Notes: generated by a model not told the origin, from the sequence alone. Positions 250 to 31,125 are shown, counted from the stretch's first letter. The stretch: DNA of 58,979 nt from an uncultured beta proteobacterium (GCA_903912485.1 CAIWHR010000076.1:1-58979); one strand, 5' to 3'. Numbers and translations are program-made.

Positions 250-2040
250 GTGGAAGGGATTCAAGTGACCGGCGCTTTGCCGGCATTCGCGCCTCCCCAG
301 TCGCCTGCCGAGACCCCGAAATGGAGAACGATCATCTTGAACGCAACCCAGTCCGTCGACCCCAGCTTTCCTGACCGCGCCCGCGCTGCGCTGCTCGCCC
401 ACGCTTGCGGAGATCGCTATGGCGCACCGCTGGAGTTCGTGGAGGACCGCAGCGTGCGAACCCAAGAGGTGGTGCTCGGCCATTGGACCGACGACACCCA
501 CATGTCGCTTTACTTGGGCGACGCCATCCTCGCGCACGGCCCGGGATCGCTCGACCACGGCCGTTTCGGCACCGCCACGGGCAACGCGTTTGTCCGCTGG
601 CTGCACGACCCCCTGACACCATCGACCGCGCCCGGTTCGACCTGCATCGCCGGCGCCCGCGCGTTCGAGCGCACTCGCGACTGGCGACAGAGCGGCGTTG
701 CGTCGTCCGATGGTTGCGGCGCGGTGATGCGTGTCGTACCTCTGGCCCTCGCCTATCGCGGCGCGGAACTGCTGGAGGCGGCCCGCATCTCAGCGGTGGT
801 CACCCACGCGCATCCCGACGCACAGGAGGCGGCAATGGCCGGTGCGTGGCTGGTGAGAAAGGTGTTGGAAACCGGTGTCTGGAACCGCGCTTGGGTCGAA
901 GAGGCGATTCGCGGGCTGCAGGGGCCCTGGGGGCAGGGAGGTAACGTTGCCGAGAGCTTGCTGGCCGCCATCGCCTGGGCTCGTCGCGGAGAAGAATGGT
1001 TGGACGAGGAGTGCATTCCGCCGGGCGACGGAGGCTGGCGTTCTGGCAGTGCGCTGGGACTCGCGGTCGCCGCTGCGCTGCGCTGGCACGACGATCTCGG
1101 GCTCGCGGTAGAAAAGGCGGCGCGAATCGAGGGAGACTCCGACTCGGTTGCCTGCCTGACCGGGGCACTGCTCGGCGCGGCCGGTGGCACCAAGGCCATC
1201 CCGCCAATGTGGCTGGCAACATTGCCCCAACGGGCCGAGATCGAGGGCCTTGCGGATCGATTGCTCGCCCAAGCCGACGCCGTGCCGCCCAGGAATTCGC
1301 CGCTGGTCGTGATCGGGGACCTGCACGGACATCTCGACCTGTTCGAGCAGATCCTGGCGAAGATCGACCAGTTGTACCCGACGGCCCGCATTGTGACGCT
1401 GGGCGACTATGTCGACAACGGCCCCCAGATACCCGCCCTGTTGGATCGACTGGTCGCGCTCAAGGCCGAGCGACCCGACCGCTTCTTTCCCATCCTCGGG
1501 AACCACGACTTGGCGCTACTGCGAGCGCTGGGCTGGCCCGCGGAGGAGCCGGATGGGCAATGGTACGAACATTGGAAGGCGCGCTACTGGAGCACGGGGG
1601 GCGCCACGCCAGAAGCGTATGGCGCGGACGGCCTCGAGAGCTTCCGGGATGCCTTCCCGCCGGCACACTTCCGCTTCCTGGCCTCGCTGCCCTGGTTCTA
1701 CGATGACGGCGAGCATTTCTGCGTGCACGCCGGCCTGCACCTGGGTTCCATCGATCGCCAGCGCCCCGGGCTCGATGCCAAGGCACTTCCCGGAGAACGG
1801 CTGCACCTCCCCGACGCGATCCGCAACAAGGGCCTTGCCACGCTGAACGACTCCGCCTGGGAGCGGGTGGTCGTGAGCGGCCACACGCAGCTTCGGGATA
1901 GGTGGGTGTTTTCGGCGTCGCGCCGCGTCTGCGTGTCGGCGACGTCGGACCACGGCGAAGGGCTGCTCGCCGTCGTACTGCCTGAGCGGCGGTGCTGGTG
2001 GGCGAGCGAGGGGACGGTGGTGGAAGTCACCGTGGTGTGA
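250..2040 (+). CDS. ADP-ribosylglycohydrolase (ARH/DraG-like) fused to calcineurin-like metallophosphoesterase
   Basis: 596-aa ORF. The N-terminal half has ARH signatures (ACGDRYGAPLEF, HWTDDTHMSL, EGDSDSVACLTGALLGAAGG). The C-terminal half has the metallophosphatase motifs in order (VVIGDLHGH, LGDYVDNGP, LGNHD, VHAGL, VSGHT). Start is ambiguous: GTG 250, GTG 265 or TTG 337 (GGAGA 9 nt upstream). Confidence 0.85.
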   Translation: MEGIQVTGALPAFAPPQSPAETPKWRTIILNATQSVDPSFPDRARAALLAHACGDRYGAPLEFVEDRSVRTQEVVLGHWTDDTHMSLYLGDAILAHGPGSLDHGRFGTATGNAFVRWLHDPLTPSTAPGSTCIAGARAFERTRDWRQSGVASSDGCGAVMRVVPLALAYRGAELLEAARISAVVTHAHPDAQEAAMAGAWLVRKVLETGVWNRAWVEEAIRGLQGPWGQGGNVAESLLAAIAWARRGEEWLDEECIPPGDGGWRSGSALGLAVAAALRWHDDLGLAVEKAARIEGDSDSVACLTGALLGAAGGTKAIPPMWLATLPQRAEIEGLADRLLAQADAVPPRNSPLVVIGDLHGHLDLFEQILAKIDQLYPTARIVTLGDYVDNGPQIPALLDRLVALKAERPDRFFPILGNHDLALLRALGWPAEEPDGQWYEHWKARYWSTGGATPEAYGADGLESFRDAFPPAHFRFLASLPWFYDDGEHFCVHAGLHLGSIDRQRPGLDAKALPGERLHLPDAIRNKGLATLNDSAWERVVVSGHTQLRDRWVFSASRRVCVSATSDHGEGLLAVVLPERRCWWASEGTVVEVTVV

Positions 2041-2368
2041 GTGGAGAATGGCCGCATGGACTGGAGGCCCGATCCATGAGCACGAAAAGGAAGAATCGAT
2101 CGTCCGGGGCTGCCGACACGGCACCGGCGGAGAAGATGCCTCTGTCGATCCGCGTGGCCGGACTACTAACGCACACGCCTCGGCCTCGACGAGCCGTCGA
2201 GGCCGAGAACCTGATGCCGCGCTGCCAGTTCGCGCCGTTCAAGGAGCGAGGCGTCCGTGCCAGGATGAATATCGTTCACCCGGAAATGCTGTTTGACGCC
2301 GTCCAGCCGCCCCTGCCGACGATGGAGACGAAGGCATCACTCGCGATCGTCCCCATGAAACCTCCGAA

Positions 2369-3301
2369 TCAGCCCTCTGCGGGCACCGCGAATGCCGCGA
2401 GGTGAACCACCTTGGTATCGACGACCAGCGCTGCCGCCGCAGTGTCCTCGCTCTCGAAGCGCACATCCACTCCCTCGGCCAGCGCCTCGAACCGGGACTC
2501 CGGCGCCAGCTGCAACTTGGCGAGGAACGCACGCACGTCGACATCCGTCGGGAGCTTGGTCGCGCCTGACGACTGTTCTTCGACCGCATCGAGTGCGTAG
2601 CTGCCGAGCACCTTGCGCAGGAACTTCGCGAACGTGGCCGAACTGTCGAAAAGCTCGACACCGCGAACCTTGCCGTTGATGGCGAACAGCGCGCCAACCT
2701 GCTTGGACTGAGCTTCGAACGCGGATTCGTAGCTCGCCAGGTCGCCCTCCCGATGCGTGTAGATGTCGCTCATCGCCTCGGTGGGCGAATCGACCTCCAT
2801 CGCGCGTTGCTTGCGCTCGATGTTCGCCCAGACCCGCCTTTGATCGCTTGCCCGCGAACCGGTCTCGCGCATCCCTGTCGATACATCCTGCATCTTCGCC
2901 GCGCGGGCGTTCGCGTACAGGCTGCGCTTGGCCGATCCGAACTCGCGTGAGCGATACGACCAGCGGCCGCGCTCCACGCAGGAGACGGGGATGACGACCT
3001 TCTGGTGCCTGCCGACCAGGATGGTCAGGTTGAGGATGCGATTCTGCCGCGCACCGACGAGCTCCTCGCCGTCGACGAGCAGGATCCTGCGGTCGGAATC
3101 GTTGACGAAGCTCAGCTCGGGGACGCTGCCCGACTCGGAGACCTCGGTGATGTGCGCGGCGCCCGATTCGAGCGCCTCGTCCAGCGTGAGATAGTCCGCG
3201 CCTACGTCAGCGTCCGCGAGCAGCGGAACGACAGCCAGGTTCCGGAATGCGGTGGTCTCGCCGAGCTTCAGGCCGGCAAGGGTGTGCGAAAGGGTGTTCA
3301 T
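2369..3301 (-). CDS. ARPP-1-like uncharacterised protein (family call from memory)
   Basis: 310-aa ORF, 78 nt downstream of the WYL gene on the same strand and convergent with the ARH fusion. Motifs FRNLAVVPLL, VGARQNRILN and VIPVSCVERGRWSY match my recollection of the uncharacterised ARPP-1 family (ARG- and rhodanese-phosphatase-associated protein). Not verified by HMM. Confidence 0.7.
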   Translation of the reverse strand: MNTLSHTLAGLKLGETTAFRNLAVVPLLADADVGADYLTLDEALESGAAHITEVSESGSVPELSFVNDSDRRILLVDGEELVGARQNRILNLTILVGRHQKVVIPVSCVERGRWSYRSREFGSAKRSLYANARAAKMQDVSTGMRETGSRASDQRRVWANIERKQRAMEVDSPTEAMSDIYTHREGDLASYESAFEAQSKQVGALFAINGKVRGVELFDSSATFAKFLRKVLGSYALDAVEEQSSGATKLPTDVDVRAFLAKLQLAPESRFEALAEGVDVRFESEDTAAAALVVDTKVVHLAAFAVPAEG

Positions 3302-3379
3302 CGTGTCCTCCGATACGCGGGCGCGCCTTCTCGCCCGCCATGAAGAACAGTTTGCACGGCCCGCGGCTCATGGCGTGAG

Positions 3380-4366
3380 CTACGCAGAATGCCTTTCGTA
3401 CATTCGAGCGGCGGCATCGTGCCGCGCCGCCACGCGCTGGCGGAGTTCGGGCGGCGCCGCGACCTCGACGTTCGCGCCGTGGCGAAGCACGTCCATGATC
3501 AGCTCTTCGTCGGCCGAGTAGGGAACTTCCAGGATGTACGTGCCATCGGGTTCGAACCGGCTGCGCTGGTCCTTGTGCCATTGCTCGTGCGCGACCCAGC
3601 GCGCCGAGACGGGATTGAAGCGCAGGACGGCCCATAACACGTCCTTGCCGGAATAGATTCCGTAGCCGGCCGAGATCACCGCTTCCAGGTCCTCCGCGGA
3701 CACCTCCTTCGCCGCATCGTCGAGCTTCTCGGCCTTCCCGATCGCGTCGAGCGCGAAGCTGCGGATGCCCTCGCGCAGGTGGCACCAGGTGTCGAGATAC
3801 CACGTCGACCGATAGTAGGTGAGACGCTGGGGCGACACGGTGCGCGCGGTGTGCTGCCCACTCGCGCGATTGAAGTGCCCGAGCCGCAATCGCTTGCGCT
3901 CCAGCAGTGCGGACGCGGAGGTCTGGAATGTCGCGTTGTCAGGGGCGCGCCCGCCGATGCGTTCGACGTGAACGCGGTTCTCGATGTCGGCAAGCCGGTA
4001 GTCCGTGCTGCGGTCGAGCAGCTTTTCCAGCCGAGCCATGAGCGGCTGGATGCTCGGCTCCAGCAGCCCGGGCTGAATGTCGGCCAGCAGTTGCCGCATG
4101 GTCATCAGCGCGTAGATCTCCGACGGGTTGAACCAGAGCCCCGGCAACTCGAACGTCGGCCCGAGATTGACGCTACCCGTCAGCGTATAGCCGCCCTTGT
4201 CCCGGTCATACTCGATCGGCGCGTTGAACGTGCTCTTGAGGTATTCGAGGTCCCGCTTGAAAGTGGCGAGCGAAACTTCGAGTTCATCCGTGAATTGCCT
4301 AGTCGTGACGACCGCTTTCTCTCGCAGGAGCTTCACAATCCTGTAAAAACGATCGGATCTGTCCAC
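3380..4366 (-). CDS. HTH-WYL transcriptional regulator (BrxR/CapW/PafBC-like)
   Basis: N-terminal HTH (RFYRIVKLLREKAVVTTRQFTDELEVSLATFKRDLEYL), WYL-type segment (RTVSPQRLTYYRSTWYLDTWCH) and a C-terminal extension. The ORF opens at TTG 4420; I prefer GTG 4366 (MDRSDRFYRIV). Divergent from the operon starting at 4595. Confidence 0.8.
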   Translation of the reverse strand: MDRSDRFYRIVKLLREKAVVTTRQFTDELEVSLATFKRDLEYLKSTFNAPIEYDRDKGGYTLTGSVNLGPTFELPGLWFNPSEIYALMTMRQLLADIQPGLLEPSIQPLMARLEKLLDRSTDYRLADIENRVHVERIGGRAPDNATFQTSASALLERKRLRLGHFNRASGQHTARTVSPQRLTYYRSTWYLDTWCHLREGIRSFALDAIGKAEKLDDAAKEVSAEDLEAVISAGYGIYSGKDVLWAVLRFNPVSARWVAHEQWHKDQRSRFEPDGTYILEVPYSADEELIMDVLRHGANVEVAAPPELRQRVAARHDAAARMYERHSA

Positions 4367-4594
4367 AGTCGGGCGCCTTGGGAACGTGGTCGGGATCGCG
4401 GGTGGCCTCCCGGACAGCAAGTCTATCCGCCTGGCTCACGATGGGCCACCTCGAGCCTTGTCGCATGGGATATGAGGCCCGTCCCGGCGAGTCTGGTGCC
4501 ATCGTGATCGCAACACCGCGTGGCGTCAGGTTCTGTCGCTGCGCCGGCGCACACTCAAGGCTTGAGCGACCGGCAGGCCAACCAGGGTGAGGGC

Positions 4595-6406
4595 ATGGAG
4601 AGAGGGATCGGGAACGGTGGGCTGGAATTCGTTTCGTCGCACGGCGAAATCACAGGCTCCGTCAACATCGTAGCCGGCACCCCGTCGCAAATCGCCGACT
4701 TGCTCGACGCGCAGGGCGGCGTGTCGTTGTCCGCGCCCGTCGGCCAATCGATCCTGACCCTCGCCTGCGCGCGATTGCGCGCCCTGGACCTTCACGACTC
4801 GCCCGATCTTTGCGTGCTGGATCTGCGTGACGCCGCGGCCGAGCTGCACCTGACGATAATCGGCTGCCCGCAGTTGCGCACCGTCCGATTGCCCCCGCAC
4901 GGGGCGGCCTTTGTGCACGTCGACGGTGGGGCGGCGGCGCCGGAACTGGCACTGGAAGGCGGCGTCGAGCAACTGGACGGCTGCTGGACCGCTGGCCGTT
5001 TTCTCAGCCGGGCGCCCCGCGGCACGCTCTGGCAGGGTGCCTGCATCACCGCGGTCGACGCCGCGGCGCCGGCGAGCGGCCAACCCGTCGCCGCGCTCCA
5101 GGTGCTGGTCGGCACCAGCTCCTGCCCGCCCGATGTGACGCTCCGGGTTTCGCCGGGCGTGCGCACCATGCTGCTCGTGGCTGTCGACGGTATGCAGCAT
5201 CTTGTCTGGACCGGTGACGCTGCCGATACGCTCGAGATACTCGACGCGCCGCAACTGGAGTCGATCGAACTCAACGGCGCCCTGGCGCACCTCCTGGTCG
5301 GCGGAAGCCCGCGCCTCAGCGCCATCCGCGGCAACGCCCGGGGCCGGCAGCTGCAGGTCAAGGACGGCAGCGGCACAAGGCTGGAACTGCATGTGGACTG
5401 GCGCTGCGACGAAATGATCGTGGCGGACAGCGACATCGGCAGTCTGCGCGTTGCCTACAGTTGCGATCTGCAGTTGCTTCGCTGCGCACGGCTCGACAAC
5501 GTGTCGCTGGTGCACGGTTGCCGGGTCAGCTGCGAGGGCAGAGTCCCACCCGCACTGATCGGCGTGGCCAGAGTCTTCGTCGACCGGGGCCTGCTGAAGA
5601 ACCTGGAGCAGCGTTGCCTGGCTGGCGACTGGGATATGTGGCGGCAGCTGCGGGAGCTGCTGCCACTGGCAAGCGACCGTGCGCACGCGCCGTTGGCGCT
5701 GCAGGTGCTGGACAGTCTGCTTGCCGCCGGGCTGGACCCGGAAGCCACATGGCGGGCTCGAACGGATCTCTATGCCCGGCACCTCCTGCGCGACCCGGGT
5801 CCTACGGTGCAACCGGAACCGCGGCACCTCGCGCGTGCACTGCAAAGCTGGGCATGGGATCTGCCGGACGATCTGGGCGCCGACGCGTGGCGCGCCGACT
5901 GGCGCATCTGGCAGGGCTGCCGTGGCCTGCCCGCCGCGCAAGACTATCAGGTCGTGATGGCGCGCGACCTCGTCAGCCTCGGGAGCGCCGCGAAGGCCCT
6001 GGTGCCCTGGCTCTTCCGGGCGCCGCAGCTGTCGCAAACCGTGACCAACGAGTTCCTTGTGGATCTCTGCAGGTGCGCAACGGAGAGCGCGACGACGCCG
6101 AATCTCGCGGCTTCGCTTGACCCGGCGGTCGCATCGTTTCTGCGCAGCCGGCGGGACGGCGCCGAGGAATCCGGCACGCTGGTCGAAGCGGCCCAGGGTT
6201 ACGTCAATCGACACGGTTCGCGGCAGGCCGTGCTGGAAGTGATGGCCGACGAAATCGAACGCCAACCAACGGCCACGCGCATCCGGTTGCTCGACCTGAT
6301 CGCGCACCCGCCCGATCGCCCCGGCAGCATGACCGTGAATCAGTTCAGGACCGCTGCCCGAATCCTGGTGATGAGCGGCCGCCTGCCAGCAGAGGCGATG
6401 CACTGA
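4595..6406 (+). CDS. LRR-like repeat protein with helical C-terminal half, function unknown
   Basis: ORF 4520-6406; ATG 4595 preferred. The first ~330 aa show irregular LxxLxL repeats (LRALDLHDSPDLCVLDLRD, LEILDAPQLESIELNG, LQLLRCARLDNVSLVHG). The rest is Leu/Ala/Arg-rich and looks helical. Ends 80 nt upstream of the AAA+ gene on the same strand. Confidence 0.65.
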   Translation: MERGIGNGGLEFVSSHGEITGSVNIVAGTPSQIADLLDAQGGVSLSAPVGQSILTLACARLRALDLHDSPDLCVLDLRDAAAELHLTIIGCPQLRTVRLPPHGAAFVHVDGGAAAPELALEGGVEQLDGCWTAGRFLSRAPRGTLWQGACITAVDAAAPASGQPVAALQVLVGTSSCPPDVTLRVSPGVRTMLLVAVDGMQHLVWTGDAADTLEILDAPQLESIELNGALAHLLVGGSPRLSAIRGNARGRQLQVKDGSGTRLELHVDWRCDEMIVADSDIGSLRVAYSCDLQLLRCARLDNVSLVHGCRVSCEGRVPPALIGVARVFVDRGLLKNLEQRCLAGDWDMWRQLRELLPLASDRAHAPLALQVLDSLLAAGLDPEATWRARTDLYARHLLRDPGPTVQPEPRHLARALQSWAWDLPDDLGADAWRADWRIWQGCRGLPAAQDYQVVMARDLVSLGSAAKALVPWLFRAPQLSQTVTNEFLVDLCRCATESATTPNLAASLDPAVASFLRSRRDGAEESGTLVEAAQGYVNRHGSRQAVLEVMADEIERQPTATRIRLLDLIAHPPDRPGSMTVNQFRTAARILVMSGRLPAEAMH

Positions 6407-6486
6407 ATGCAGATCCCGACGCTGCGACCACATGCTCCCGCCTCCCGCGTACGCGTAAACGCCCCAGAACCCGAGGAAACCTCGCC

Positions 6487-7677
6487 GTGAACCACCTCAC
6501 CGCCAACATCGAAGAGACGCGTCAAGTGCTGGAGCACCAGATCCGAACCCTGTGGAGCAATCCGGACCAGGCGGTCAACGTCGCCCCGGTGATGCTGTGG
6601 GGGCCACCCGGCGTCGGCAAGAGCTCGGTGATTCGCGACCTGTGCGCCGACCTGGGGATCGGCTTCATCGACATTCGCCTCGCGCAGCGCGAGCCCGTGG
6701 ACCTCAGAGGACTGCCCGTCCCGGAAGGGGATCAGGTGCGCTGGCTGCTGTCGTCCGAATGGCCGCGCGATCCCGCCAGTCGGGGCATTGTGCTGTTCGA
6801 CGAGCTTACGGCCGCCGACCGGACGCTTCAGGTGGCGGCCTACGAGTTCATCCTGGATCGCCGGTTGGGCGACCTCTACCGCGTGCCGCCGGGCTGGATG
6901 GTCTGCGCAGCAGGCAACCGCAGCGGCGATCGGGCGGCGGCGATGACGCTGTCGAGCGCGCTTGCGAACCGCTTCTGTCACCTCGAACTGCGTGCCGACC
7001 TCGACCCCTGGTGCCACTGGGCAATCCGGCGCGCGCTGCATCCGGACGTCATCGCCTTCCTGCGGTTTCGTCCCGAGTGCTTCTTCCGCATGGAAGGGGA
7101 CCTTGAGCGTGGCTGGCCAAGCCCACGAAGCTGGGAGCGGGTGGCACTGACCGTCGAGCACGGCGCAAGCCTGAGCGAAACCGCACTGGCGCTGATCGTC
7201 CACGGTTTGGTCGGACGTGGTGCCGGCACCGAATTCCTGGCATTCAGGAAGCTGGCCGGCGAGGTTCCGGATGTCACCAGGCTGCTGCGGGGCGATCTCG
7301 TCGTCAAGCTGCCCGAACGTGCCGATCAGCGCTATGCCCTTTGCGCCGCGCTAGCCCATCACGTCTGGCGCGCACCGGAGGCCGAACGAAAGGATTGGAT
7401 GACGAATTTCCTGCGGATCGGCATGCAGTTGCCGAGCGACTTCGCCGTCATGGCGATGATGGACGCCATGCAGCAGCTCGAGGACGACCAGGACCCCGAT
7501 CGGGTCCGCCTGCTGTTCGAGAGCCAGGCGTACGAAGGCTGGCGGGAGCGCCACGGGTCCGTGATGGCGCACCAATTCCCGCACGCAGTGACCGACGAGG
7601 ATGGTGCCCGGACCCGCGCCGTCGCCAACGCGGATGCCGGCGAACTGGCGCGCGCGCTCGCGGCTGCCGGGACATGA
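6487..7677 (+). CDS. MoxR-type (AAA_5-like) AAA+ ATPase
   Basis: GTG start with GAGGAA about 8 nt upstream. Walker A LWGPPGVGKS, Walker B IVLFDELTAAD, sensor-1 AAGNR. Stop overlaps the next start (ATGA). Confidence 0.85.
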   Translation: MNHLTANIEETRQVLEHQIRTLWSNPDQAVNVAPVMLWGPPGVGKSSVIRDLCADLGIGFIDIRLAQREPVDLRGLPVPEGDQVRWLLSSEWPRDPASRGIVLFDELTAADRTLQVAAYEFILDRRLGDLYRVPPGWMVCAAGNRSGDRAAAMTLSSALANRFCHLELRADLDPWCHWAIRRALHPDVIAFLRFRPECFFRMEGDLERGWPSPRSWERVALTVEHGASLSETALALIVHGLVGRGAGTEFLAFRKLAGEVPDVTRLLRGDLVVKLPERADQRYALCAALAHHVWRAPEAERKDWMTNFLRIGMQLPSDFAVMAMMDAMQQLEDDQDPDRVRLLFESQAYEGWRERHGSVMAHQFPHAVTDEDGARTRAVANADAGELARALAAAGT

Positions 7678-8972
7678 CCGGCACACCTGCCCCCCTCCCG
7701 GCAACCGCAACCGACCGGATCGCAGGGGCATCTCCGGAACCCCAGACCTTGCGGATCAGGTGCCCCTCCAACGAGGAAGCCGCAGCGAAAGAGCGCTGGC
7801 GTCGAGTTCTGGAAGAGGATCGAACGCGGCTGTTGCTGCACCATCCGTTCACCGCGTCCCTGGCGTTGCAGCTCGACGTCATTCCGGTGGTGGACTCGCG
7901 CCTGCGCTCCGCCGCGACCGATGGTCGACGCATTTTTGCGCACATCGGATTCCTCGCCGCCCTGAGCCCCGACGCGAGGCTGTTCGTGCTCGCCCACGAG
8001 GTGTGGCACTGCGTCGCCGGACACTTCGTCAGGCGGTTCGACCGCGACCCCCACGCCTGGAATCTGGCAGCCGACCACGAGGTCAACGCGCTGTTGCAGC
8101 GCGACGGCCTTGCGATGCCGGGGGACGCCGTCTACTTCGGCTGGTTGGACGGCGAAAGCGCGGAAGCCGTCTACGACTGGCTGCACGGGACGGATGCGCC
8201 GCCCACCGCTGGCATGGTCCAGTTCGATGACCACGCGCCCGGGGGCGCAGCATTCGGGCGGCCGGCGTCAGGCGACGCCCCGATGTCAGCGGACGCAGCG
8301 CAGGTGCAGGACCCGGACTTCACCCCCCAGGCCGGCGGCGAGGCGCTGAAGCGCGACTGGCAGGAGCGCCTTGCCACGGCCGTGAACCGGTCCAAGGGAC
8401 GGGGAAACTTGCCCGAACGGCTGGAATGCCTGGTCGACTCCTTGCTGCGCCCCAGCCTGCCGTGGCGCACCCTGCTGCAGCGCTTTGTCCAGCGGACCTA
8501 TGGCGGAGCGAGATCCTGGCATCCACCGTCGCGTCGCCACATCTATCGCAAGCTGTGGTTGCCAGGGATGAGAGGTCAACTGCTGCGGGTGATGGTTGCC
8601 ATCGACACCAGCGGCAGCACTTCGGAGGTGCTGCCGCGGTTCATGAGCGAAGTCAGGGGGCTCGTCGGGGAATTCGATCGCATCGAGATCACGCTGGTGG
8701 AGTGCGACGCCGAAATCTCGCGGGTCCGCACGTTGAGCGCAACGGACGACGTGGACGGGCCCGAGTTCATGTCGATTCTCGGTGGCGGCGGCACCGACCT
8801 CAGGCCACCGTTCGAACTCGCCGCCAAAGACCCGCCGGCCTGCCTCGTCTACCTGACCGACGGCTTTGGCCCGATCCCCGAGTCGCCGCCGGGCTTCCCC
8901 GTGCTGTGGGTGATGCCGGACGACGAATCAGACCCGCCGCCGTGGGGAGAAATTGCGATCATCGCAGCGTGA
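7674..8972 (+). CDS. HExxH metallopeptidase-like + vWA (MIDAS) protein, DUF2201-like architecture
   Basis: ATG 7674 overlaps the AAA+ stop; the part of the ORF-track entry upstream of it (from 7341) is Arg/Gly-rich and not used. HExxH in LAHEVWHCVAGH. vWA/MIDAS motifs VAIDTSGSTS, GGGGTDL, LVYLTDGFG. Confidence 0.85.
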   Translation: MTGTPAPLPATATDRIAGASPEPQTLRIRCPSNEEAAAKERWRRVLEEDRTRLLLHHPFTASLALQLDVIPVVDSRLRSAATDGRRIFAHIGFLAALSPDARLFVLAHEVWHCVAGHFVRRFDRDPHAWNLAADHEVNALLQRDGLAMPGDAVYFGWLDGESAEAVYDWLHGTDAPPTAGMVQFDDHAPGGAAFGRPASGDAPMSADAAQVQDPDFTPQAGGEALKRDWQERLATAVNRSKGRGNLPERLECLVDSLLRPSLPWRTLLQRFVQRTYGGARSWHPPSRRHIYRKLWLPGMRGQLLRVMVAIDTSGSTSEVLPRFMSEVRGLVGEFDRIEITLVECDAEISRVRTLSATDDVDGPEFMSILGGGGTDLRPPFELAAKDPPACLVYLTDGFGPIPESPPGFPVLWVMPDDESDPPPWGEIAIIAA

Positions 8973-9097
8973 AGTCGACGTGCCAACCATTCCCGAGGCA
9001 GTTCCGCGGCAGTTTGTCATGGCGCTGACGACCAGGCACCATCAATATGCCGTCCGATCAAGATCGTCCTGATTCGGGAAGTGCGCCCGCTGGAATA

Positions 9098-9126
9098 TTC
9101 GCATCCGCCGGGACATCTCGTATGCT
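9098..9126 (+). promoter_or_regulatory. putative sigma70-like promoter of the second WYL gene
   Basis: TTCGCA - 17 nt - TATGCT, ending 22 nt upstream of ATG 9148. By-eye match only. Confidence 0.3.
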
Positions 9127-9147
9127 AGCTGCGTCCATCCACGGGAT

Positions 9148-10170
9148 ATGGCCATGACCGCCAAGCACATCAACCGTATCAACCTTCAACGCGCGATCGT
9201 CGAGATCCTGCCCCTGCAAGGCGGCAAGATGCCCGGCCTGAAAGCCGCCGATATCTGCAGCAGCTTCGAGGAGTACTTCCCCAGAAGCAAGAGCGATGGC
9301 GCGAACCGCCGCAAGCTCGAGCGCGAGCTTAAAGATCTCATCGAGGAAGGTCGCGCCGTCGTCGGCGACGTCAAGGCCAGGCCCAATCTCTACCTGCGCC
9401 CCGCTTCCGAGGACGAAGACGAGTTCGATTCGCTGTTGTGGGCCTACACCGTCGGGCACATCGAGGACCATCTCGAGTCGGTGCTTCCGCACAAGAAACT
9501 CGAAGCCGCCATCAAGCGGCTTCAGGACCCGGATGCGGGCGTACGCCTGAGCGACAGCAAATTCAGGATCGTTCCCGACACCCTGCGCCTGCTACCGGCC
9601 GCATTCGATCCCGCGGTCCTTGCGGCCATCCTCCAGGCTCTCATGGAAGGAAAGACACTGAACGCAGTCTATCGCGACAAAGCAGGCAAGCAAACCCGCC
9701 CGACTCTGCACCTGCAAGCTGCACTTCATCGGGGGCCACGCTTCTACGTCTTCGCGCTCAAGAACGAGGAAACGGAGCCTGTCCGGATGTACGTCCTGCA
9801 CCGTTTCACCAGCGCCAGCGTCGGCGATGAGCCGGTGCGCGTGGCGCCAGGCTTCGACCTGGACGAGGCCGAGCGCACGGGCCAGGTCAATTTCAGCAGC
9901 GGCGAGATGACCCAACTTGCAATGCTCGCCCGCGGCTACGTCGCCGACCTGTTGCGCGAGTGCCCGATGGGACGGGATCAGCAGATCATTGATGAGCCCG
10001 CGGGCAACCTGTTCGACTGCCGCGTGAGCGTCACCGTACCCAAGGCGGGACAACTGCTGCGCTGGCTGCTCGGTTGCGGCGACAACGTGAAGGTATTGGA
10101 GCCGCTCGAAATCGCGAAAGCAGTTGCGGCGCAGTCGGGGAAGACGGCGAAGCTGTATGTGGAGGGATGA
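9148..10170 (+). CDS. WYL-domain protein (second putative regulator)
   Basis: 340-aa ORF. N-terminal winged-helix-like segment, central WYL-like segment (RPTLHLQAALHRGPRFYVFAL ... VRMYVLHRF), C-terminal tail (VKVLEPLEIAKAV). Confidence 0.7.
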   Translation: MAMTAKHINRINLQRAIVEILPLQGGKMPGLKAADICSSFEEYFPRSKSDGANRRKLERELKDLIEEGRAVVGDVKARPNLYLRPASEDEDEFDSLLWAYTVGHIEDHLESVLPHKKLEAAIKRLQDPDAGVRLSDSKFRIVPDTLRLLPAAFDPAVLAAILQALMEGKTLNAVYRDKAGKQTRPTLHLQAALHRGPRFYVFALKNEETEPVRMYVLHRFTSASVGDEPVRVAPGFDLDEAERTGQVNFSSGEMTQLAMLARGYVADLLRECPMGRDQQIIDEPAGNLFDCRVSVTVPKAGQLLRWLLGCGDNVKVLEPLEIAKAVAAQSGKTAKLYVEG

Positions 10171-10251
10171 TCGGGCACCGGTTGATCCGGAGCACGGCTT
10201 CGGCTGGAGCAAGCGAGGCACGCAAGCCCCTCGAGATCGGGATAGGGGCGG

Positions 10252-10740
10252 TCAGATTACCTGACGGGTATGGCCCGCCACCTTCGCCGCATGTGCCTCG
10301 GTCGCACCCAGTGCCCGCAGGGCCCGATAAGTCGTCTTGCCTCGTCGCCACTGGTTGGGTTGAATCGCCCGTAGCCGGTGACGCAGCCATTCGTCGAGGG
10401 CGCGGAACGTCCTTGGCGTTTGCGCCAGCCGGAAGTACTCCCTCCAACCGGGCAAGTAGCCGCGGAGCCGTTCGGCGACTCCGGCAAGCTGCGTCCACAG
10501 TTCCGACGAGTCAGCCACCGAATACGCTGCTTGAACGTGTCCAAAGCCTTACGCGCAACGGCCCGTTTGACCTCATCCCCAGACCGTCGCCGAAAACGGT
10601 AGCCGAGAAACCTCCGGCCGAAGACCCTGGCCACCGCAGTCTTCGCTTCGTTCACCTTCAGGTGCAGCCCAGCGTACCCGATCCTCGCGATCCCGATTGC
10701 CACGTAGCACCAAATGATGCTGCGGCGCATTCTCGTCTAT
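10252..10740 (-). pseudogene. group II intron reverse transcriptase/maturase remnant (frameshifted, 5-prime truncated)
   Basis: Two frames carry consecutive pieces. One is IIWCYVAIG..GLHLKVNEAKTAVARV..RFLGYRF (late RT/thumb). The other is YLPGWREYFRLAQTPRTFRALDEWLRHRLRAIQ..WRRGKTTYRAL (maturase X domain). The earlier RT blocks are absent. Confidence 0.7.
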
Positions 10741-10907
10741 ATCGGCATCACACGAGGCAGAGAACTCGTTCATCGTCCCCCCCGGCCGGCTACGTGGGCG
10801 GCGATGGTGGGGGACGAGCCGATCGAACGGCATTGGTCAGAGCTGGAGGAGCGGTTGCGCGTGATTACCAATGCCTGACGTCGGGAAAGTGGACATACTT
10901 GTTACGC

Positions 10908-13900
10908 CTACACGGCGCCACCGATGACCCGCACGGTGCTCGCGCCATGGCCTTGACGTTCTACCAGTACTTGGACTCCGATACGCTCGGCAAGTCCCGG
11001 GACGTGCGAGATCAAGCCCACCTTTCGTCCGGCAGACTGGACCGAGTCGAGTGCCGACAGCGCGGTCTCCAGCGTCTTCGAGTCCAGCGACCCAAAGCCC
11101 TCGTCGATAAAAAGCGATTCGATCCGCACCTTCTCTGAGGCCAGCGACGACAGGCCCAGCGCAAGTGCCAGCGAGACGAGGAAGGTCTCCCCTCCAGAGA
11201 GCGATGCAGTCGATCGGATCTCGTCGCCCATGTCACGATCAACCGCCTGAAGTTCCAGATCCTGGGTCTTCACCCGTTGCAGTAAGTAGCGAGGTGCGAG
11301 GCTTGCCAGTTCGGCGTTGGCATGCGCAATCAGCAGCTCCATCGTCATGCTCTGGGCGAACTTGCGGAACTTCTTCCCATCGGCCGACCCGATCAGCGTG
11401 TCGAGTTGTTGCCAGACCGTCGCCTCTTTGCGCGCCTGCGCCAACTCGCGGGCCTTGGCCGCGCCCAATTCACGATTCTCGTTGTCTTGGTCGAGCCGCT
11501 GCTTCGCCGCGCCGAGTTGCTGGCTTTGCTTGCCGTGCTGCGTCTCCAAGGTCACGATGTTCGCTTCGATGTCAGGCAAAGGTGCTGCAGGGGCCGGTTG
11601 CGCTTCGTGTGCCAAGAGGTCTTTCTGCCGCTCTTCGAGGGAATTGCATTCGATGGAACGCTGGCGATCGACTTCACTTAACGCTGCCCGCTCCTGACCG
11701 ACCCACTGCTCCTCATGCACGAGCAGGGTGCGCAGCGTCCCAGCGTCGAGCTCCGCGGTAGAAAGAGCTTTTGCAAGCGCGTTCGCAGTGAGTTCCTTTG
11801 CCTGAACGGCTTTGTCGACAGATCGTTGAGCGATCTTGTGCGCCTCTTGTTTCTTGGCGACATCTTCCCGTGTTCGCTTGGCCTGTTCCGACGCGACGTC
11901 CTGGGCTTGATCACAAGCCTTGAGCGCCGCTTGCAACGAAGCCTCGACCTCAGTCGCTGGCCTGCCTTGAAGGACTTCCTGCCGCTTTGCCAGCAGTGCG
12001 CTGCGGTCGGCAGCTAGCTGATTGCGGTCGGCAACGAGGGTATCCCGCTGTTGCGTCGATTGCTTCAGCAGATTGGCCTGCACTTCCCGCTGTGTATCGA
12101 TCTCGGTCAACTGCTTCCTGTTGCTCTCGTAAATCTGCGCGTGTTGCCTGGCTTCATCGATTCGCGCAGTCCATTTCGAAGTGAAGGCCTTCGGGTCTGC
12201 TTCGAGGTCGACCTGCCAGCCATCGAACTCGCCAAGAGCCACGGCGAGGTTCACGAGCGTTCCATCGAGCACTTTCCGGAAGGCGTCCACATCCGCGGTC
12301 GCGTGCCTGCGCTTCTCGAGCGCCGAAGCCACGACGCCCTCGGCCGCCGTGAGCGCGCTGCGCGCCTTTTCGGCGCGGCCGACCGCTTCTCCCTGCGACT
12401 TGCGGGCCTCCGCCGCCGACTTGCGAAGCTGCCCCAAGGCTTGCTCCTGTTCGGCAATGGCCTTGGCCTCTGCGTTCAGATCGAGCTCTCTCGCTTCCAG
12501 CCAGTCTTTGGATTCGAGGCCCGCCGGATCGCCTGCGCCACCGAACGTCTTCCACTGAGCTGCCGCATCGCCCAATTCGGCTTGCCAGCGATCAATCTCC
12601 TTCTCCAGTTCAAGTACCCGACTGGTTCGAGCCTCGGCGCGCGCCGTCTCCGCGGCCTCCCGGTTCTGCAACTCGGTACGACGCTCGGTCTGCGTCCGCT
12701 TCTGTTCTTCAAGAGCGGCAGTCGTCGTTTTGATCGGACCCGTGCCAGGGTGGTGCGTCGATCCGCACAAGGGGCATGGCTCGCCGTCGATGAGCCGGGC
12801 ACGGTGTGCATCGAGGCCGAGCCGTTCGAGCAGGAGGTCGGTTCCGGCCAACTGCTGCTCGACCTCGCGACGGGCCGCTGCGGCCTGGCCGGCCTGCGTT
12901 TCGGCGTCCGTTGTTTCCTTCCTGGCCTTAGCCGCCTCGGCTTGGCGATTCGTGCAATCCTTGTCTGCCTTTGCAGCCCGGTCGCGCTGCTGCTCAAGCT
13001 TCGCGAACTGGATGCGCAGAGCTTCGAGTGCAGTCCGTCGCTCGGCAATATTTCCGGTCGGGTGCTCCGCTTCGGCGGCCTCGGCGGTCCGTACGCGTTC
13101 CAGCGCGGTCTTGACCAAAGCTTCGGCCGCGGTCAACTCCCGCTGTGCCTGTGTCTGGGCGACGACCGCATCTTCGTGGGTCAGCTGCAGGGCAGGCAGG
13201 GCTGTGAGTTGCGTCTTCCAACCGGCATGCGTCTGCTCGAATGCCCTTAACTGTGGCGCAACGCCCTCGTTCCATCCCTTAGCAAGCGCAACGACTGTGC
13301 CATTCGACTTCACCCAGGCCGTCAGCTCTTCCAGCGCCGATGAGACGGTCTCGCGTCGATCGGTCAGAGTCCGTCCTTCCTTTTCCAGAGCCGCAAGCCC
13401 GCTGTTGGCCTCCGCCAGCTTCTTGTCCGTGGCCTCGATGGTCCCAGTCTTCTCGGCAATCGCCTGATCCAGGGACTTCGCAGTGTCGATCTGCGGCTTG
13501 GTCGATACCACCTCGTTGCGTCGCCGGTGCTGGTCCTTCAATGCCTGCGCGAGTGCCGCTGCCGCGCGCTCATCTTCGGTCCGGGCCTGCACCAAGGCGA
13601 CCTCGGCAGAGCCCAGATGCATTTGGGCGGCACCGAGCTCTTCGGCCGTTCGTGTCGCTTCCTTGTCGACAGCACGCAGGGGCTGCACTCGTTCAATGTC
13701 GGCCAGCGCTCGACGCCGCGGCTCGGCCTCGGTCCACCGGCGCGTGGCCGCGACCGAACTCTCACGCGCTTGGTCGAGCTTCTGCCGGATCTCGGCTGCC
13801 TTGGTCCGCCAAGTCTTCTGCTCGCGCAGACCACCGAGCCGGCTTGCTGTGTTGGCGATGATCTGGCCAAGTTCGGCAACGCTCGCCAGGAGTGCGGCAC

Positions 13901-15838: not shown

Positions 15839-16160
15839 CGATCCCACTCCTGTCGGCGCGCGTCTAAAGTTACCCCAGGGGTGCGCGTTGAAGAATGACC
15901 CAGGGTGGGCTGCCGCCCAGCTTTGGGCGGCGCGTGGTCAAGTGTAGTCGATGGATGGCAGAACGGGGCCTCCTCGGTCGACGCCTTGGATCGCTTGCTC
16001 TGTTCCCGCGACTTGATCCGCGACTTGGCGGTCGCGGTGCTGTGGCGGAAACGGTAGGACTCGTTGTCCAACTTTGCGGCCTGGGCGATAGCGCATTTGC
16101 CAAACGAGACCTGCCTCGTCTGGGATGAGCGCATCGCCAGGTAAGAGTCACCGAGGCCCG

Positions 16161-29689: not shown

Positions 29690-30040
29690 AGCACCTGCCT
29701 TGGTGAGGTTCGACGGCATCCGTTACTCGGCCCCGTGCGAACTGGTCGGGCAGTTGGTCAGCGTGCGGACCTACCCGGAGCGGATCGAGATCCCGCCCAT
29801 GACCGGGTAGTGGCGAGTCACGAGCGGTCCTTCGAGCACAACCAGACGTGCTACGAGTGGCAGCATTGCCTTCCGCTGATCGAACGCAAGCCCCGCGCCC
29901 TGCGCGACGGCTCACCGTTTGCCGACTTGCCGGAATCGCTGCTGCGTCTGCGCGGGTTGCTGTTGCCGCGCCATGGCCAAGGTGCTGACGGTGGGGTCCA
30001 AGGCTGGATTGGAGGCCGTGCTCATAGTGGTCAGCCTCCC
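29690..30040 (+). pseudogene. IS21-family IstA transposase C-terminal fragment (frameshifted)
   Basis: Spread over two or three frames: VRFDGIRYSAPCELVGQLVSVRTYPERIEI, then VVASHERSFEHNQTCYEWQHCLPLIERKPRALRDGSPFADLPE, then MAKVL..GLEAVL. Boundaries are approximate. Confidence 0.6.
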
Positions 30041-31009: not shown

Positions 31010-31125
31010 GCGGGCACCTTGTCGAGTTGGGTGTAGGGGATGCCGGCGCGCTTCAGTTGCGCCGGGTTGCCGTCGCGGGTGACGAGCGCGGTGAGGCGCG
31101 TGCCGGCAAGAGCGAGGCGCACCGC

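Follow-up and report, generated by a model that had tools for sequence, protein, structure and literature searches.

What is the function of a three-gene cassette that lies between genes for WYL proteins in an uncultured beta proteobacterium? An earlier note on this DNA placed the cassette at positions 3380-10170 of the window (the whole stretch of 58,979 nucleotides that was analyzed). It described a WYL regulator divergent from genes for an LRR-like protein of 600 amino acids, a MoxR-type AAA+ ATPase and a vWA protein with an HExxH motif, followed by a second WYL gene. Pfam searches and sequence motifs bear out all five genes and their domains. However, the proposed limits are too narrow, because two further genes, for a fusion of ADP-ribosylglycohydrolase (ARG) to Metallophos and for ARPP-1, lie directly upstream. 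The region has the following features.

250-2040, plus strand: ARG-Metallophos fusion (Pfam)
2369-3301, minus strand: ARPP-1 (Pfam PF20208)
3380-4366, minus strand: WYL1, HTH-WYL-WCX architecture (Pfam, PADLOC)
4367-4594, no strand: divergent intergenic region, presumed from the gene arrangement to hold promoters and operators
4595-6406, plus strand: X600, a protein of 603 amino acids from a family without prior description
6487-7677, plus strand: MoxR-like AAA+ ATPase (Pfam AAA, Walker motifs)
7674-8972, plus strand: putative zinc-peptidase/vWA protein, DUF2201_N plus DUF2201 (Pfam, HExxH, MIDAS)
9148-10170, plus strand: WYL2, WYL-WCX architecture (Pfam)

The genes for X600, the ATPase and the peptidase-vWA protein (the triad) are adjacent at 40 of 74 species-level loci in a census anchored on DUF2201 patterns, a count that is phylogenetically non-independent because related genera are included (six Marinobacter or Marinobacter-like loci and four from Sphaerotilus). 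When divergent X600 homologues (down to an E-value of 4.5e-5) served as the anchor, five of six look-ups found the triad. The earlier note had held that its proposal would fail if homologues of the 600-amino-acid protein were not linked to AAA+/vWA pairs in other genomes; they proved to be tightly linked. Gene order is identical across dozens of species, and the cassette is far beyond chance. In the window, the ATGA coupling noted previously between the ATPase and peptidase-vWA genes can be read straight from the sequence as an overlap at 7674-7677. Triad contexts are accessory or mobile and include McrBC, Zorya-like genes, SIR2, GIY-YIG, DUF262, IS elements and one plasmid, which agrees with the defense-like setting that had been suggested.

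X600, whose ATG directly follows GGTGAGGG, has no match in Pfam, NCBIfam, PADLOC or PHROG. An exhaustive search gathered its relatives into 136 clusters (50% identity); on the basis of sequence, X600 is not an orphan and founds a previously undescribed family. An AF2 model (pLDDT 92.4, pTM 0.84) has an LRR-like beta-solenoid at approximately residues 40-330, followed by a helical repeat domain (residues 331-603) in which W386, R389 and W421 are invariant and W419 is nearly invariant. The family profile weakly matches the LRRs of Internalin-J and DRC6, and the top Foldseek match of the model is ZYG11B (E 3.1e-5, prob 0.99), a substrate receptor of a Cullin-2 ligase (PDB 9lk2) with the same two-part architecture of an LRR solenoid and then armadillo-like helical repeats. 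Profile, model and Foldseek search thus all uphold the description of the protein as LRR-like plus helical. ZYG11B is the sole Foldseek PDB match at E < 1e-3 and spans 578 aligned columns, but with 10% identity and a TM-score of just 0.17, the likeness is architectural and does not imply homology. Moreover, X600 has neither a Cullin box nor a VHL box, and it is partnered with an AAA+/peptidase, whereas the partner of ZYG11B is a ubiquitin ligase. X600 is the fastest evolving of the three genes, with a median identity of 30%, compared with 58% for the AAA and 43% for the DUF2201 protein. It is probably a target-selecting adaptor for an ATP-driven peptidase complex.

The ATPase carries Walker A (GPPGVGKS, residue 39) and Walker B (IVLFDE, residue 101) motifs, as well as AAGN, ANRF and SPR motifs. 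It scores above the cut-off for Pfam AAA (24.9 bits) and below those for AAA_5 and AAA_3. Its best PDB sequence matches are midasin AAA domains (4.4e-8) and NorQ (1.6e-3), it matches PHROG 1297 at 1.8e-79, and a plasmid orthologue with 63% identity is labeled "MoxR family ATPase" in RefSeq. This MoxR-like AAA+ protein is the predicted motor of the triad. The third protein matches DUF2201_N (7.4e-39) and DUF2201 (6.8e-24) in Pfam, and has an HEVWH motif at residue 108 and a MIDAS composed of DTSGS at residue 311, GGGGTD and LTDG. Across 23 relatives, H108, E109, H112, D134, E136, D311, S313, S315 and D396 are invariant, and T374 is nearly so (at least 90%). The profile of this protein matches M48 and MJ1213 peptidases, and its C-terminal half matches vWA folds (prob 1.0). 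Positions 7674-8972 are predicted to encode a zinc metallopeptidase domain of the gluzincin type joined to a vWA domain whose MIDAS is complete.

The upstream genes connect the triad with ADP-ribose (ADPr). In Pfam, the fusion at 250-2040 matches ADP_ribosyl_GH over residues 46-319 (1.9e-49) and Metallophos over residues 351-511 (1.3e-13); this joining of ARG to a calcineurin-like phosphoesterase is predicted to be an ADP-ribose-removing or -processing enzyme of a larger system. ARG genes beside the triad recur in further species. ARPP-1 matches PF20208 over its full length (4.6e-100), and at another locus (L052), it is likewise divergent from X600. WYL1 lies 78 bp upstream of ARPP-1 on the same strand and probably heads a co-transcribed WYL1-ARPP-1 operon divergent from X600.

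This arrangement matches an ARPP-WYL gene pair in the ARG-centric ADP-ribose-countering systems predicted in silico by Iyer, Burroughs, Anantharaman and Aravind (2022, Viruses 14:1977, section 3.8; PMC9503650), in which ARPP is a component and is paired with a WYL regulator in a unit of two genes. The ARG-Metallophos fusion, ARPP-1 and the two WYL genes of the window are all components in that section. The region and these systems share an ARG that is not linked to a transferase, a phosphatase coupled to the system (in the window, the calcineurin-like fusion), a one-component regulator of the WYL type, ARPP, and a vWA "peptide-binding chaperone"; both also evolve rapidly and gain and lose parts in a modular fashion. 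The region therefore is not wholly undescribed. The earlier claim that the combination is uncharacterized holds for experiments, in that the literature searched contained no experimental description of the triad, but not for prediction. Within PMC9503650, only a vWA domain is named: "MoxR" and "AAA+" are absent from the text, nothing there is like X600, and "peptidase" is used a single time, for phage capsid processing. The vWA protein of the window, in contrast, sits in an obligate three-gene unit with a fast-evolving LRR-like/helical protein, and the triad also joins Macro(MavL)/SIR2/R-P-phosphatase operons without ARG.

Proximity to ADPr enzymes is widespread among triads. Of the 26 that are well flanked (3 kb or more on each side), 17 lie within 6 kb of ARG, MavL-macro, SIR2 or ARPP, and the number rises to 22 when a nearby WYL gene is also accepted, neighbor genes being those called by a home-made ORF picker. 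AAA-DUF2201 loci without X600 have an ADPr enzyme in only 2 of 16 cases (Fisher p = 0.0012 versus triads). A Pfam scan of 196 neighbor proteins from 38 triads detected ADP_ribosyl_GH (15), Metallophos (12), WYL (9), MavL (4), SIR2 (4), a Tc-R-P rhodanese-phosphatase-type model (5; 3+2) and PTP-SAK (3+2). One locus (L012) is a single operon, Metallophos-ARG-ARG-WYL-X600-AAA-DUF2201; an operon on a Sphaerotilus plasmid reads WYL-ATPase-Sir2-DUF4804(MavL-like)-phosphatase-hypothetical-X600-MoxR-vWA. ADPr enzymes are absent within 6 kb of the other nine, and at three of the 26 loci (L013, L051 and L061), WYL genes and phosphatases are missing from the vicinity as well, so that the triad can occur by itself. 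The cassette is real, conserved and mobile, and is one module within a larger predicted ADP-ribose-removal system.

Regulation of this module is suggested by its WYL genes. WYL1 matches HTH_11 (2e-5), WYL (2.1e-16) and WCX (3.5e-17) in Pfam and the PADLOC WYL model (1.4e-40), and is predicted to be a one-component transcription factor. It shares the HTH-WYL-WCX architecture of BrxR, CapW, PafBC and DriD, and their position divergent from an operon. However, a sequence search of solved structures places it closest to PafBC (9e-17), PafC and DriD-type WYL proteins; no chain labeled BrxR or CapW was among the matches, and three matches are named just "WYL domain-containing protein". WYL2 matches WYL (4.7e-7) and WCX (2.1e-9), with no Pfam HTH match in its N-terminal region and no solved relative by sequence search. 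Genes of the WYL2 type are the commonest WYL genes adjoining the triad in other species (L012, L014, L015, L031, L057, L064, L162 and L164). The description of the cassette as WYL-flanked fits 19 of the 26 well-flanked loci, but no WYL gene was among those called at its closest relatives (L002, L004 and L006); WYL genes are therefore a frequent accessory and not core.

The 228-bp intergenic region contains the palindromes CTCAAGGCTTGAG (4554-4566) and TGCGCCGGCGCA (4540-4551). The former, previously put forward as an operator, is present, but its frequency is no higher than chance and carries no statistical weight: the window has 148 perfect palindromes with 6-nucleotide arms and spacers of 0-4 nucleotides, or 0.57 per 228 bp, and the intergenic region has 2. 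No sigma-70-like site was found in 4367-4594, and it is the gene arrangement that suggests a regulatory role.

We give about an even chance to the reading that positions 250-10170 are a single composite, WYL-regulated conflict system centered on ADPr, of the kind predicted by Iyer et al. (2022). In such a system, the ARG-phosphoesterase fusion and ARPP-1 would take off or process ADP-ribose adducts, and the triad would be a protein-handling module. The LRR-like and helical repeat surfaces of X600 would bind a specific protein, perhaps an ADP-ribosylated protein of the host or an ADP-ribosyltransferase of an invader. The vWA MIDAS site would dock X600, at a guess through the nearly invariant aspartate D426 or D435; a MoxR hexamer would remodel the bound protein with ATP, and the fused gluzincin domain would cleave it. 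WYL factors would repress the genes, and the arrival of a nucleotide-type ligand (ssDNA or a derivative of ADPr) would relieve the repression.

vWA-MoxR ternary (VMAP) systems (Kaur, Burroughs, Iyer and Aravind 2020, eLife 9:e52696) also combine a MoxR AAA+ protein, a vWA component that sometimes carries fused peptidases, and a third variable protein. We rejected this assignment. The triad has no bpMoxR profile match and no VMAP, iSTAND or effector-associated domain in Pfam, and since X600 lacks any Pfam match, no VMAP-type component is detectable. The MoxR protein of the window also lacks a long N-terminal extension with WxhapG/PsWRxa motifs, its Walker A motif lying already at residue 39, and the triad occurs mainly in unicellular Proteobacteria, whereas VMAP systems occur in multicellular bacteria.

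It is possible, although doubtful, that the triad is an autonomous anti-phage system, in which X600 would sense a phage protein and MoxR/vWA would activate the peptidase on a host or phage target, with the ADPr enzymes as independent island neighbors under shared WYL control. The closest relatives (L002/L007, L004 and L006) lack ARG and lie amid McrBC, Zorya-like, GIY-YIG and SIR2 genes, the three isolated triads mentioned above are compatible with autonomy, and the fast evolution of X600 is sensor-like. However, the same operons repeatedly hold ARPP, ADPr-type phosphatases and ADPr enzymes with three unrelated types of fold (ARG, macro and SIR2), and some of the genes overlap, a specificity beyond that of island membership in general. 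Also, no PADLOC model matches any of the three triad proteins.

In characterized MoxR-vWA pairs (NorQ/NorD, CbbQ/CbbO, RavA/ViaA and CobS/CobT), a MoxR or dynein-related AAA+ protein is encoded beside a MIDAS-bearing, client-binding vWA protein, and such pairs are best known as factors for enzyme maturation or activation. The shared pairing, the PDB match to NorQ, and the rank of ARG and Metallophos as the commonest triad neighbors would suit an assembly or metal-insertion chaperone for the adjoining binuclear metalloenzymes (ARG and the calcineurin-like phosphoesterase), like NorQ/NorD, CoxD/CoxE or CbbQ/CbbO. We consider this role unlikely. The triad differs from these pairs in its peptidase on the vWA protein, its dedicated repeat-protein partner, its lack of a conserved client metalloenzyme, and its mobile, patchy distribution. 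Beside some triads, metal-independent macrodomain plus R-P phosphatase modules replace ARG; the peptidase is conserved and, judging from its motifs, apparently active; and the roughly 30% identity of X600, against 43-58% for its partners, is unexpected if the client enzyme is conserved. Because the triad is patchy, plasmid-borne and IS-flanked, it is not housekeeping; these properties and the swaps to non-metal neighbors disfavor the housekeeping maturation module that the earlier note had raised against its own reading.

Another improbable role is in a response to DNA damage or adducts, in which the peptidase would clear proteins or ADP-ribose-linked adducts from DNA, along with SbcCD-type nucleases, UvrD-like helicases and ARPP (proposed to cross-link to sugars in an SRAP-like manner; PMC9503650), and PafBC/DriD-like WYL factors would sense ssDNA. 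SbcCD or SbcCD-like pairs adjoin the triad in the window and at L013, L014, L015, L067, L162, L002/L007 and L020, and an SMC-like ATPase does so at L021; however, this adjacency may be inherited synteny in Comamonadaceae, SbcCD of the window is beside RecBCD and looks housekeeping, and SbcC and SbcD-like genes occur at just two and five, respectively, of the 26 well-flanked loci. Of the 26 triads, 8 have a UvrD-like helicase in the vicinity and 11 a double-AAA ATPase, but no triad protein has a detectable DNA-binding domain. A WYL gene lies inside the SbcDC operon at L067 and L014, and PafBC and DriD-type proteins are the closest solved relatives of WYL1, although likeness to PafBC leaves the ligand unproven.

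Phages also carry the two partners of X600. The AAA and DUF2201 proteins match PHROG 1297 and PHROG 1314 at approximately 1e-79, the pair is present on 532 or more IMG/VR contigs, and counting the AAA gene by itself gives 834 GenBank phage records. The jumbo-phage pair, for which a role in virion assembly was proposed (PMC7824862; Iyer et al. 2021, Viruses 13:63), has the identical two-gene architecture, with a MoxR-like AAA+ gene ahead of a gene for a vWA protein with a fused N-terminal metallopeptidase domain. Unlike the window, pairs of this type lack X600, ARG, WYL and ARPP (0 of 80 viral loci), and the AAA-peptidase/vWA pair therefore has at least one ADPr-independent role. An origin of the triad as the relic of a prophage chaperone pair for virion assembly is very improbable and already largely refuted, because no phage structural genes flank the window triad, viral homologues are at most 36% identical to the window proteins and never accompany X600, and cellular genomes keep the triad along with ADPr genes. 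In phage Bas54, a gene annotated as a MoxR ATPase, and possibly of this family, is reported to be one of two anti-defense genes required against the predicted defense system DS-28.

The earlier note described a three-gene cassette flanked by WYL regulators, and a check of coordinates, domains and the ATGA overlap found all five genes as described. Its boundaries, however, missed two genes immediately upstream: an ADP-ribosylglycohydrolase (ARG) fused to a phosphoesterase, and an ARPP gene (ARPP-1). The extended region is as follows.

250-2040, plus strand: ARG-calcineurin-like phosphoesterase fusion (Pfam ADP_ribosyl_GH, 1.9e-49; Metallophos, 1.3e-13, residues 351-511)
2369-3301, minus strand: ARPP-1 (Pfam, 4.6e-100)
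3380-4366, minus strand: WYL1, a regulator with HTH_11, WYL and WCX domains (Pfam)
4595-6406, plus strand: X600, a 603-aa repeat protein with no family match
6487-7677, plus strand: AAA+ ATPase (generic Pfam AAA above cut-off)
7674-8972, plus strand: DUF2201 peptidase-vWA protein (Pfam DUF2201_N, 7.4e-39; DUF2201, 6.8e-24)
9148-10170, plus strand: WYL2, with WYL and WCX domains (Pfam)

We refer to X600, the ATPase and the DUF2201 protein as the triad. A ribosome-binding-like site, GGTGAGGG, lies 5' of the X600 start. The ATPase carries Walker A (GPPGVGKS), Walker B (IVLFDE), AAGN, ANRF and SPR motifs. Its Pfam scores for AAA_5 (19.7 bits, cut-off 22) and AAA_3 (17.7, cut-off 27) are both sub-threshold; it matches solved structures of midasin AAA domains (4.4e-8) and NorQ (1.6e-3), and an orthologue carries the RefSeq name MoxR family. 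It also has the MoxR-type feature of an adjoining vWA/MIDAS partner gene, the DUF2201 gene, whose start is overlapped by the ATPase stop codon (ATGA).

Both domains of the DUF2201 protein exceed the Pfam gathering score (PF13203, 134.4 bits against 23.2; PF09967, 84.8 against 26.4). Across 23 relatives, HEVWH (H108, E109, H112), DHE, DTSGS and D396 are invariant and the MIDAS residue T374 is nearly so. The MIDAS of the vWA domain is complete (DxSxS, T and D residues), vWA structures match the C-terminal half of the protein (probability 1.0), and its profile touches the zinc peptidases M48 and MJ1213. Judged from its sequence, the peptidase of this zinc-peptidase/vWA protein is apparently active.

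WYL1 is on the same strand as ARPP-1 and 78 bp upstream of it, and therefore probably heads a WYL1-ARPP-1 operon divergent from X600. Of the traits of BrxR/CapW-type regulators, it has the HTH-WYL-WCX architecture and the divergent orientation, and the candidate operator palindrome is at chance frequency. By sequence, its nearest relatives of solved structure are PafBC and DriD-type proteins. A 109-aa ORF at ~2076-2405 (plus strand; 1990-2319 in L001, an identical public contig) lies between the ARG fusion and ARPP-1 and overlaps the 3' end of the latter.

The triad is a conserved, mobile three-gene module. For each of the three nearest DUF2201 homologues (57-61% identity), a gene for a 589-611-aa protein and then an AAA gene lie immediately upstream; these 589-611-aa proteins have no Pfam match and are 40% identical to X600. 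A genome census anchored on DUF2201, with one genome per species, was cross-checked by six look-ups anchored on X600. The census yielded 75 loci, 74 of them with a full DUF2201 match, and an X600-family ORF adjoins the AAA-DUF2201 pair in 40 of the 74. Most hosts of the complete loci are Beta- and Gammaproteobacteria; others belong to the Alpha- and Deltaproteobacteria. Starting from divergent X600 homologues (E-values 4e-47 to 4.5e-5), the AAA gene was directly 3' of X600 in five of the six look-ups, and in those the DUF2201 gene was then present wherever the contig continued. Linkage of the three triad genes is obligate. On these results, the cassette withstands the objection that homologues of its 600-aa protein might not be linked to AAA+/vWA genes in other genomes.

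Other arrangements of these genes were also seen among the numbered loci with DUF2201 or X600 relatives (L numbers). Some X600 copies lie away from AAA-DUF2201: Methylonatrum has an additional complete one (L070:16465-18318), and 240-aa X600-like fragments lie directly 3' of ARG genes in Marinospirillum (L010:15959-16702, L011:15959-16678). At L036:5074-7029, a minus-strand gene is inserted between X600 and the ATPase gene. In Halomonas/Vreelandella loci, a short DUF2201-like paralogue (209-266 aa; L024:2430-3059, L027:7850-8479, L034:3054-3683, L031:4886-5686) lies near a full AAA-DUF2201 pair, and in three of these four loci the paralogue adjoins a WYL gene.

X600 itself has no match in Pfam, NCBIfam, PADLOC or PHROGs, and a word-indexed homology search returned the query alone. 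An exhaustive phmmer search of 1.84 billion cluster representatives found 136 relatives at E <= 1e-3 and 37 at E <= 1e-30, nearly all of them 530-640 aa long. These clusters, together with the identity to neighbours of DUF2201 homologues in pairwise BLASTP, rule out that X600 is an orphan. Its AlphaFold2 model (70-sequence alignment; pLDDT 92.4, pTM 0.84) consists of a beta-solenoid over approximately residues 40-330 followed by an all-helical repeat domain. Top Foldseek matches of the model are LRR proteins (ZYG11B, FSHR) with low TM-scores. Among PDB structures only ZYG11B, a substrate receptor of LRR plus armadillo-like architecture, matches strongly (E 3.1e-5, probability 0.99, with a TM-score of just 0.17), and the search against viral structures had no match at E <= 1e-3. 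The family profile weakly matches the LRRs of Internalin-J (1.6e-4) and DRC6 (3.8e-4), and Pfam LRR models have no match in X600. Given the modelled fold, the ZYG11B match and the weak profile matches, the earlier reading of this protein as "LRR-like plus helical" is a fair description, with strict LRR membership unproven. Residues L94, W386, R389 and W421 are invariant and others, for example H108, D128, W131, W419, D426 and D435, nearly so; together they mark two conserved patches. X600 diverges much faster than its partners: over the same 25 loci, X600 has a median identity of 30% to its counterpart in the window, against 58% for AAA and 43% for DUF2201.

The region closely resembles the "ARG-centric" systems predicted computationally by Iyer et al. 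2022 (PMC9503650, section 3.8), which would reverse phage-imposed ADP-ribosylation. Such systems combine an ARG lacking a linked transferase with a coupled phosphatase, a WYL or Nudix regulator, ARPP and peptide-binding chaperones, including vWA. Every testable defining feature is found in the region. The phosphatase, which may be fused or adjacent and of the R-P, calcineurin-like, HD or HAD type, is here a Metallophos domain in the ARG polypeptide. For the accessory chaperone (vWA, SseB or TY-chaperone and/or ARPP), the window has the DUF2201 vWA protein and ARPP-1, and WYL1 and WYL2 correspond to the one-component regulator with a WYL or Nudix sensor. No ART or SIR2 match was found in the seven genes scanned in 250-10170, those listed above. 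However, the text of PMC9503650 never names MoxR/AAA+, uses "peptidase" once (for phage capsid processing) and describes no X600-like protein.

Resemblance to other known systems is limited. The earlier note alluded to vWA-MoxR conflict systems, but the defining features of the ternary (VMAP) systems of Kaur 2020 are absent from the region. Those systems have a bpMoxR/N-terminal extension, whereas the window ATPase has neither: bpMoxR (PF20030) gave no match at E <= 0.01, and just 38 residues precede Walker A. As for the third, VMAP component, X600 has no Pfam match, and its fold is an LRR-like solenoid with helical repeats. We therefore exclude membership in this group on both counts. The note had also proposed a search for known defence systems; in PADLOC-DB v2, X600, AAA and DUF2201 match no anti-phage system model, and just the WYL genes match, to generic WYL models. 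NCBIfam likewise has no match for the three core proteins. In the literature searched on DUF2201, on MoxR with ARG and WYL, and on anti-phage ARG operons, no experimental work on the cassette was found, in agreement with its earlier description as uncharacterised. The general idea was already contained in the 2022 prediction. New here are the X600 family, the obligate three-gene unit, the extension to Macro/SIR2-based operons and the contrast between the triad and its phage relatives.

Gene types within 6 kb of the triad were counted for 26 triads, those with 3 kb or more of sequence on each side, in a census that is anchored on DUF2201, over-represents several genera and uses ORFs from a home-made GC3-aware picker, with these results.

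ARG: 11 of 26 triads
MavL-type macrodomain: 4 of 26
SIR2: 5 of 26
ARPP: 1 of 26
Rhodanese-phosphatase type: 6 of 26
Calcineurin-like phosphoesterase: 11 of 26
WYL: 19 of 26
Double-AAA ATPase of ~700 aa: 11 of 26
UvrD-like helicase: 8 of 26

At least one ADP-ribose enzyme is near 17 of these triads, an ADP-ribose enzyme or a WYL gene is near 22, and three have no ADP-ribose enzyme, WYL or phosphatase gene nearby. By comparison, just 2 of the 16 AAA-DUF2201 loci that lack X600 contain an ADP-ribose enzyme (Fisher p = 0.0012). The triad is therefore enriched beside ADP-ribose-removing enzymes, and these are of three unrelated folds. The same pattern emerges from an independent scan of 196 neighbour ORFs with Pfam (ADP_ribosyl_GH 15, Metallophos 12, WYL 9, MavL 4, SIR2 4). 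Two operons illustrate the arrangement. Marinospirillum celere has a single operon, Metallophos-ARG-ARG-WYL-X600-AAA-DUF2201. On a plasmid of Sphaerotilus sulfidivorans the order is WYL-ATPase-Sir2-DUF4804 (MavL-like)-phosphatase-hypothetical-X600-MoxR-vWA, with a DUF262 gene and IS elements after the vWA gene; X600 is labelled "hypothetical protein" in RefSeq.

Several additional genes adjoin the triad. The double-AAA ATPases are ~700-740 aa long (Pfam AAA, ~1e-42; L012:11190-13391 in M. celere, L022:9379-11484, L029:11200-13419, L042:11200-13419, L059:12577-14775). Helicases of ~550 aa with UvrD-type matches occur at L023:5266-6939 and L165:3296-4954, the latter with a weak NERD match. SbcC and SbcD are encoded in the window at 10908-15847 (minus strand), and SbcCD, or shorter Metallophos plus AAA_23/AAA_27 SMC-like pairs, adjoin the triad on either side in several species (L013, L014, L015, L067, L162; L002/L007, L020, L021). 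At L067 and L014 a WYL gene lies inside the SbcD-SbcC operon. Either a functional link or synteny inherited within Comamonadaceae could explain this adjacency. A YbjN-family gene (L167:2458-2892) immediately precedes a distant X600 homologue; YbjN belongs to the TY-chaperone superfamily, which Iyer et al. 2022 (PMC9503650) tied to ARG-centric systems.

The cellular triad is distinct from a widespread two-gene phage version. The phage families PHROG 1297 and PHROG 1314 correspond to the ATPase and the peptidase-vWA protein, respectively (~1e-79). DUF2201 relatives occur in at least 532 IMG/VR stretches, and the ATPase occurs in 834 GenBank phage records. An AAA gene is immediately upstream in 59 of the best 80 viral DUF2201 loci, and X600, ARG, WYL and ARPP are found in none of these 80. 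For the jumbo-phage pair, Iyer et al. 2021 (PMC7824862) proposed a role in virion assembly, as a chaperone and a co-chaperone with an N-terminal metallopeptidase. According to a 2025 preprint, an anti-defence gene of phage Bas54, a MoxR ATPase by annotation only, is one of two needed to overcome a predicted defence system. From the contrast between cellular triad and phage pair, we suggest that the same motor-peptidase pair may serve both parties to the conflict. Although its match to the peptidase-vWA protein is full-length (1.4e-78), PHROG 1314 is labelled "HNH endonuclease", which looks like a mis-annotation.

We have moderate confidence in a composite reading, in which a target-selecting X600 adaptor acts with MoxR and the gluzincin under WYL control, in an ADP-ribose-centred system. 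X600 would select a target protein and dock on the vWA MIDAS site, perhaps via D426 or D435; the client would then be remodelled by the MoxR ring and cleaved by the gluzincin domain. Expression would be gated by WYL factors responding to a nucleotide-type ligand.

A possible, if rather doubtful, alternative is that the triad works on its own as a sensor-protease defence system and has no more than its islands in common with ADP-ribose genes; the closest triad relatives lack ARG, and three loci have no ADP-ribose or WYL gene at all. It is unlikely, though conceivable, that the triad is specifically a substrate-selective ATP-driven protease aimed at an invader ADP-ribosyltransferase or at ADP-ribose-adducted host proteins or DNA ends. 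A diversifying LRR/helical receptor would then deliver proteins to the MIDAS-docked gluzincin, with ARG/Macro, ARPP and SbcCD-type nucleases as partners and the phage pair as counter-measure or assembly factor. By analogy, such a protease would be a bacterial counterpart of ZYG11B-style receptor-guided proteolysis or of adduct removal by SPRTN/Wss1-p97. We consider improbable a role in maturing the metal centre of ARG or of the phosphoesterase, since the triad also pairs with metal-independent macrodomain and phosphatase modules, and the conserved peptidase, fast-evolving adaptor and plasmid location argue against it. Equally improbable in our estimation is a response to DNA adducts or damage, a role with which the recurrence of SbcCD or SbcCD-like genes beside the triad and the kinship of WYL1 with PafBC and DriD-type proteins are consistent. 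That the triad is a prophage remnant is so improbable that we reject it, given the gene content of the phage loci and the lack of phage structural genes beside the triad.

The bacterial response to phage-imposed ADP-ribosylation is almost unstudied, and the 2022 computational prediction is the sole proposal that we found. Because the module accompanies three unrelated kinds of ADP-ribose-removing enzyme, the prediction that it counters ADP-ribosylation can be tested with a compact ~10-kb operon and point mutants. The triad, with its predicted function, is thus a well-defined, testable candidate that sharpens the question of how bacteria counter this modification. If it is a receptor-guided protease, MoxR-vWA pairs would gain a new role and bacterial immunity a new effector logic.

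Regulatory sequences were also sought. The palindrome at 4554-4566, which the earlier note suggested as an operator, is present. However, such palindromes occur at 0.57 per 228 bp across the window and the divergent intergenic region has two, so this background frequency deprives it of statistical weight as evidence of an operator. The second perfect palindrome, TGCGCCGGCGCA (4540-4551), abuts the first and is within chance expectation. CAAGGCT(C/T)GAG occurs twice in the same region, at 4450-4460 and 4556-4566 in opposite orientations; as an operator signal it was set aside, being at about chance level by a rough estimate. Scanning 2000-11000 for sigma-70 promoters and terminators gave nothing above shuffled expectation.

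Elsewhere in the window, the gene at 29912-32215 (minus strand), just after a lower-GC stretch (0.59-0.61 at 26-30 kb), encodes a 767-aa protein in which S-adenosylmethionine-synthetase N- and C-terminal domains are confined to the C-terminal half (residues 404-712), an unusual fusion. The 1021-aa protein encoded at 36302-39367 (plus strand) combines a PRA-PH (MazG-like) domain, a PLD-type nuclease domain and a ResIII/Helicase_C helicase, and is a candidate defence nuclease-helicase. Two adjacent very large ORFs occupy 41380-47747 (plus strand), one of 911 aa with no Pfam match and the other, 1211 aa long, weakly matching Phage_integrase. They adjoin a HipA_C toxin kinase gene (48041-49315, minus strand), which suggests that this region, downstream of RecBCD, is mobile or accessory.
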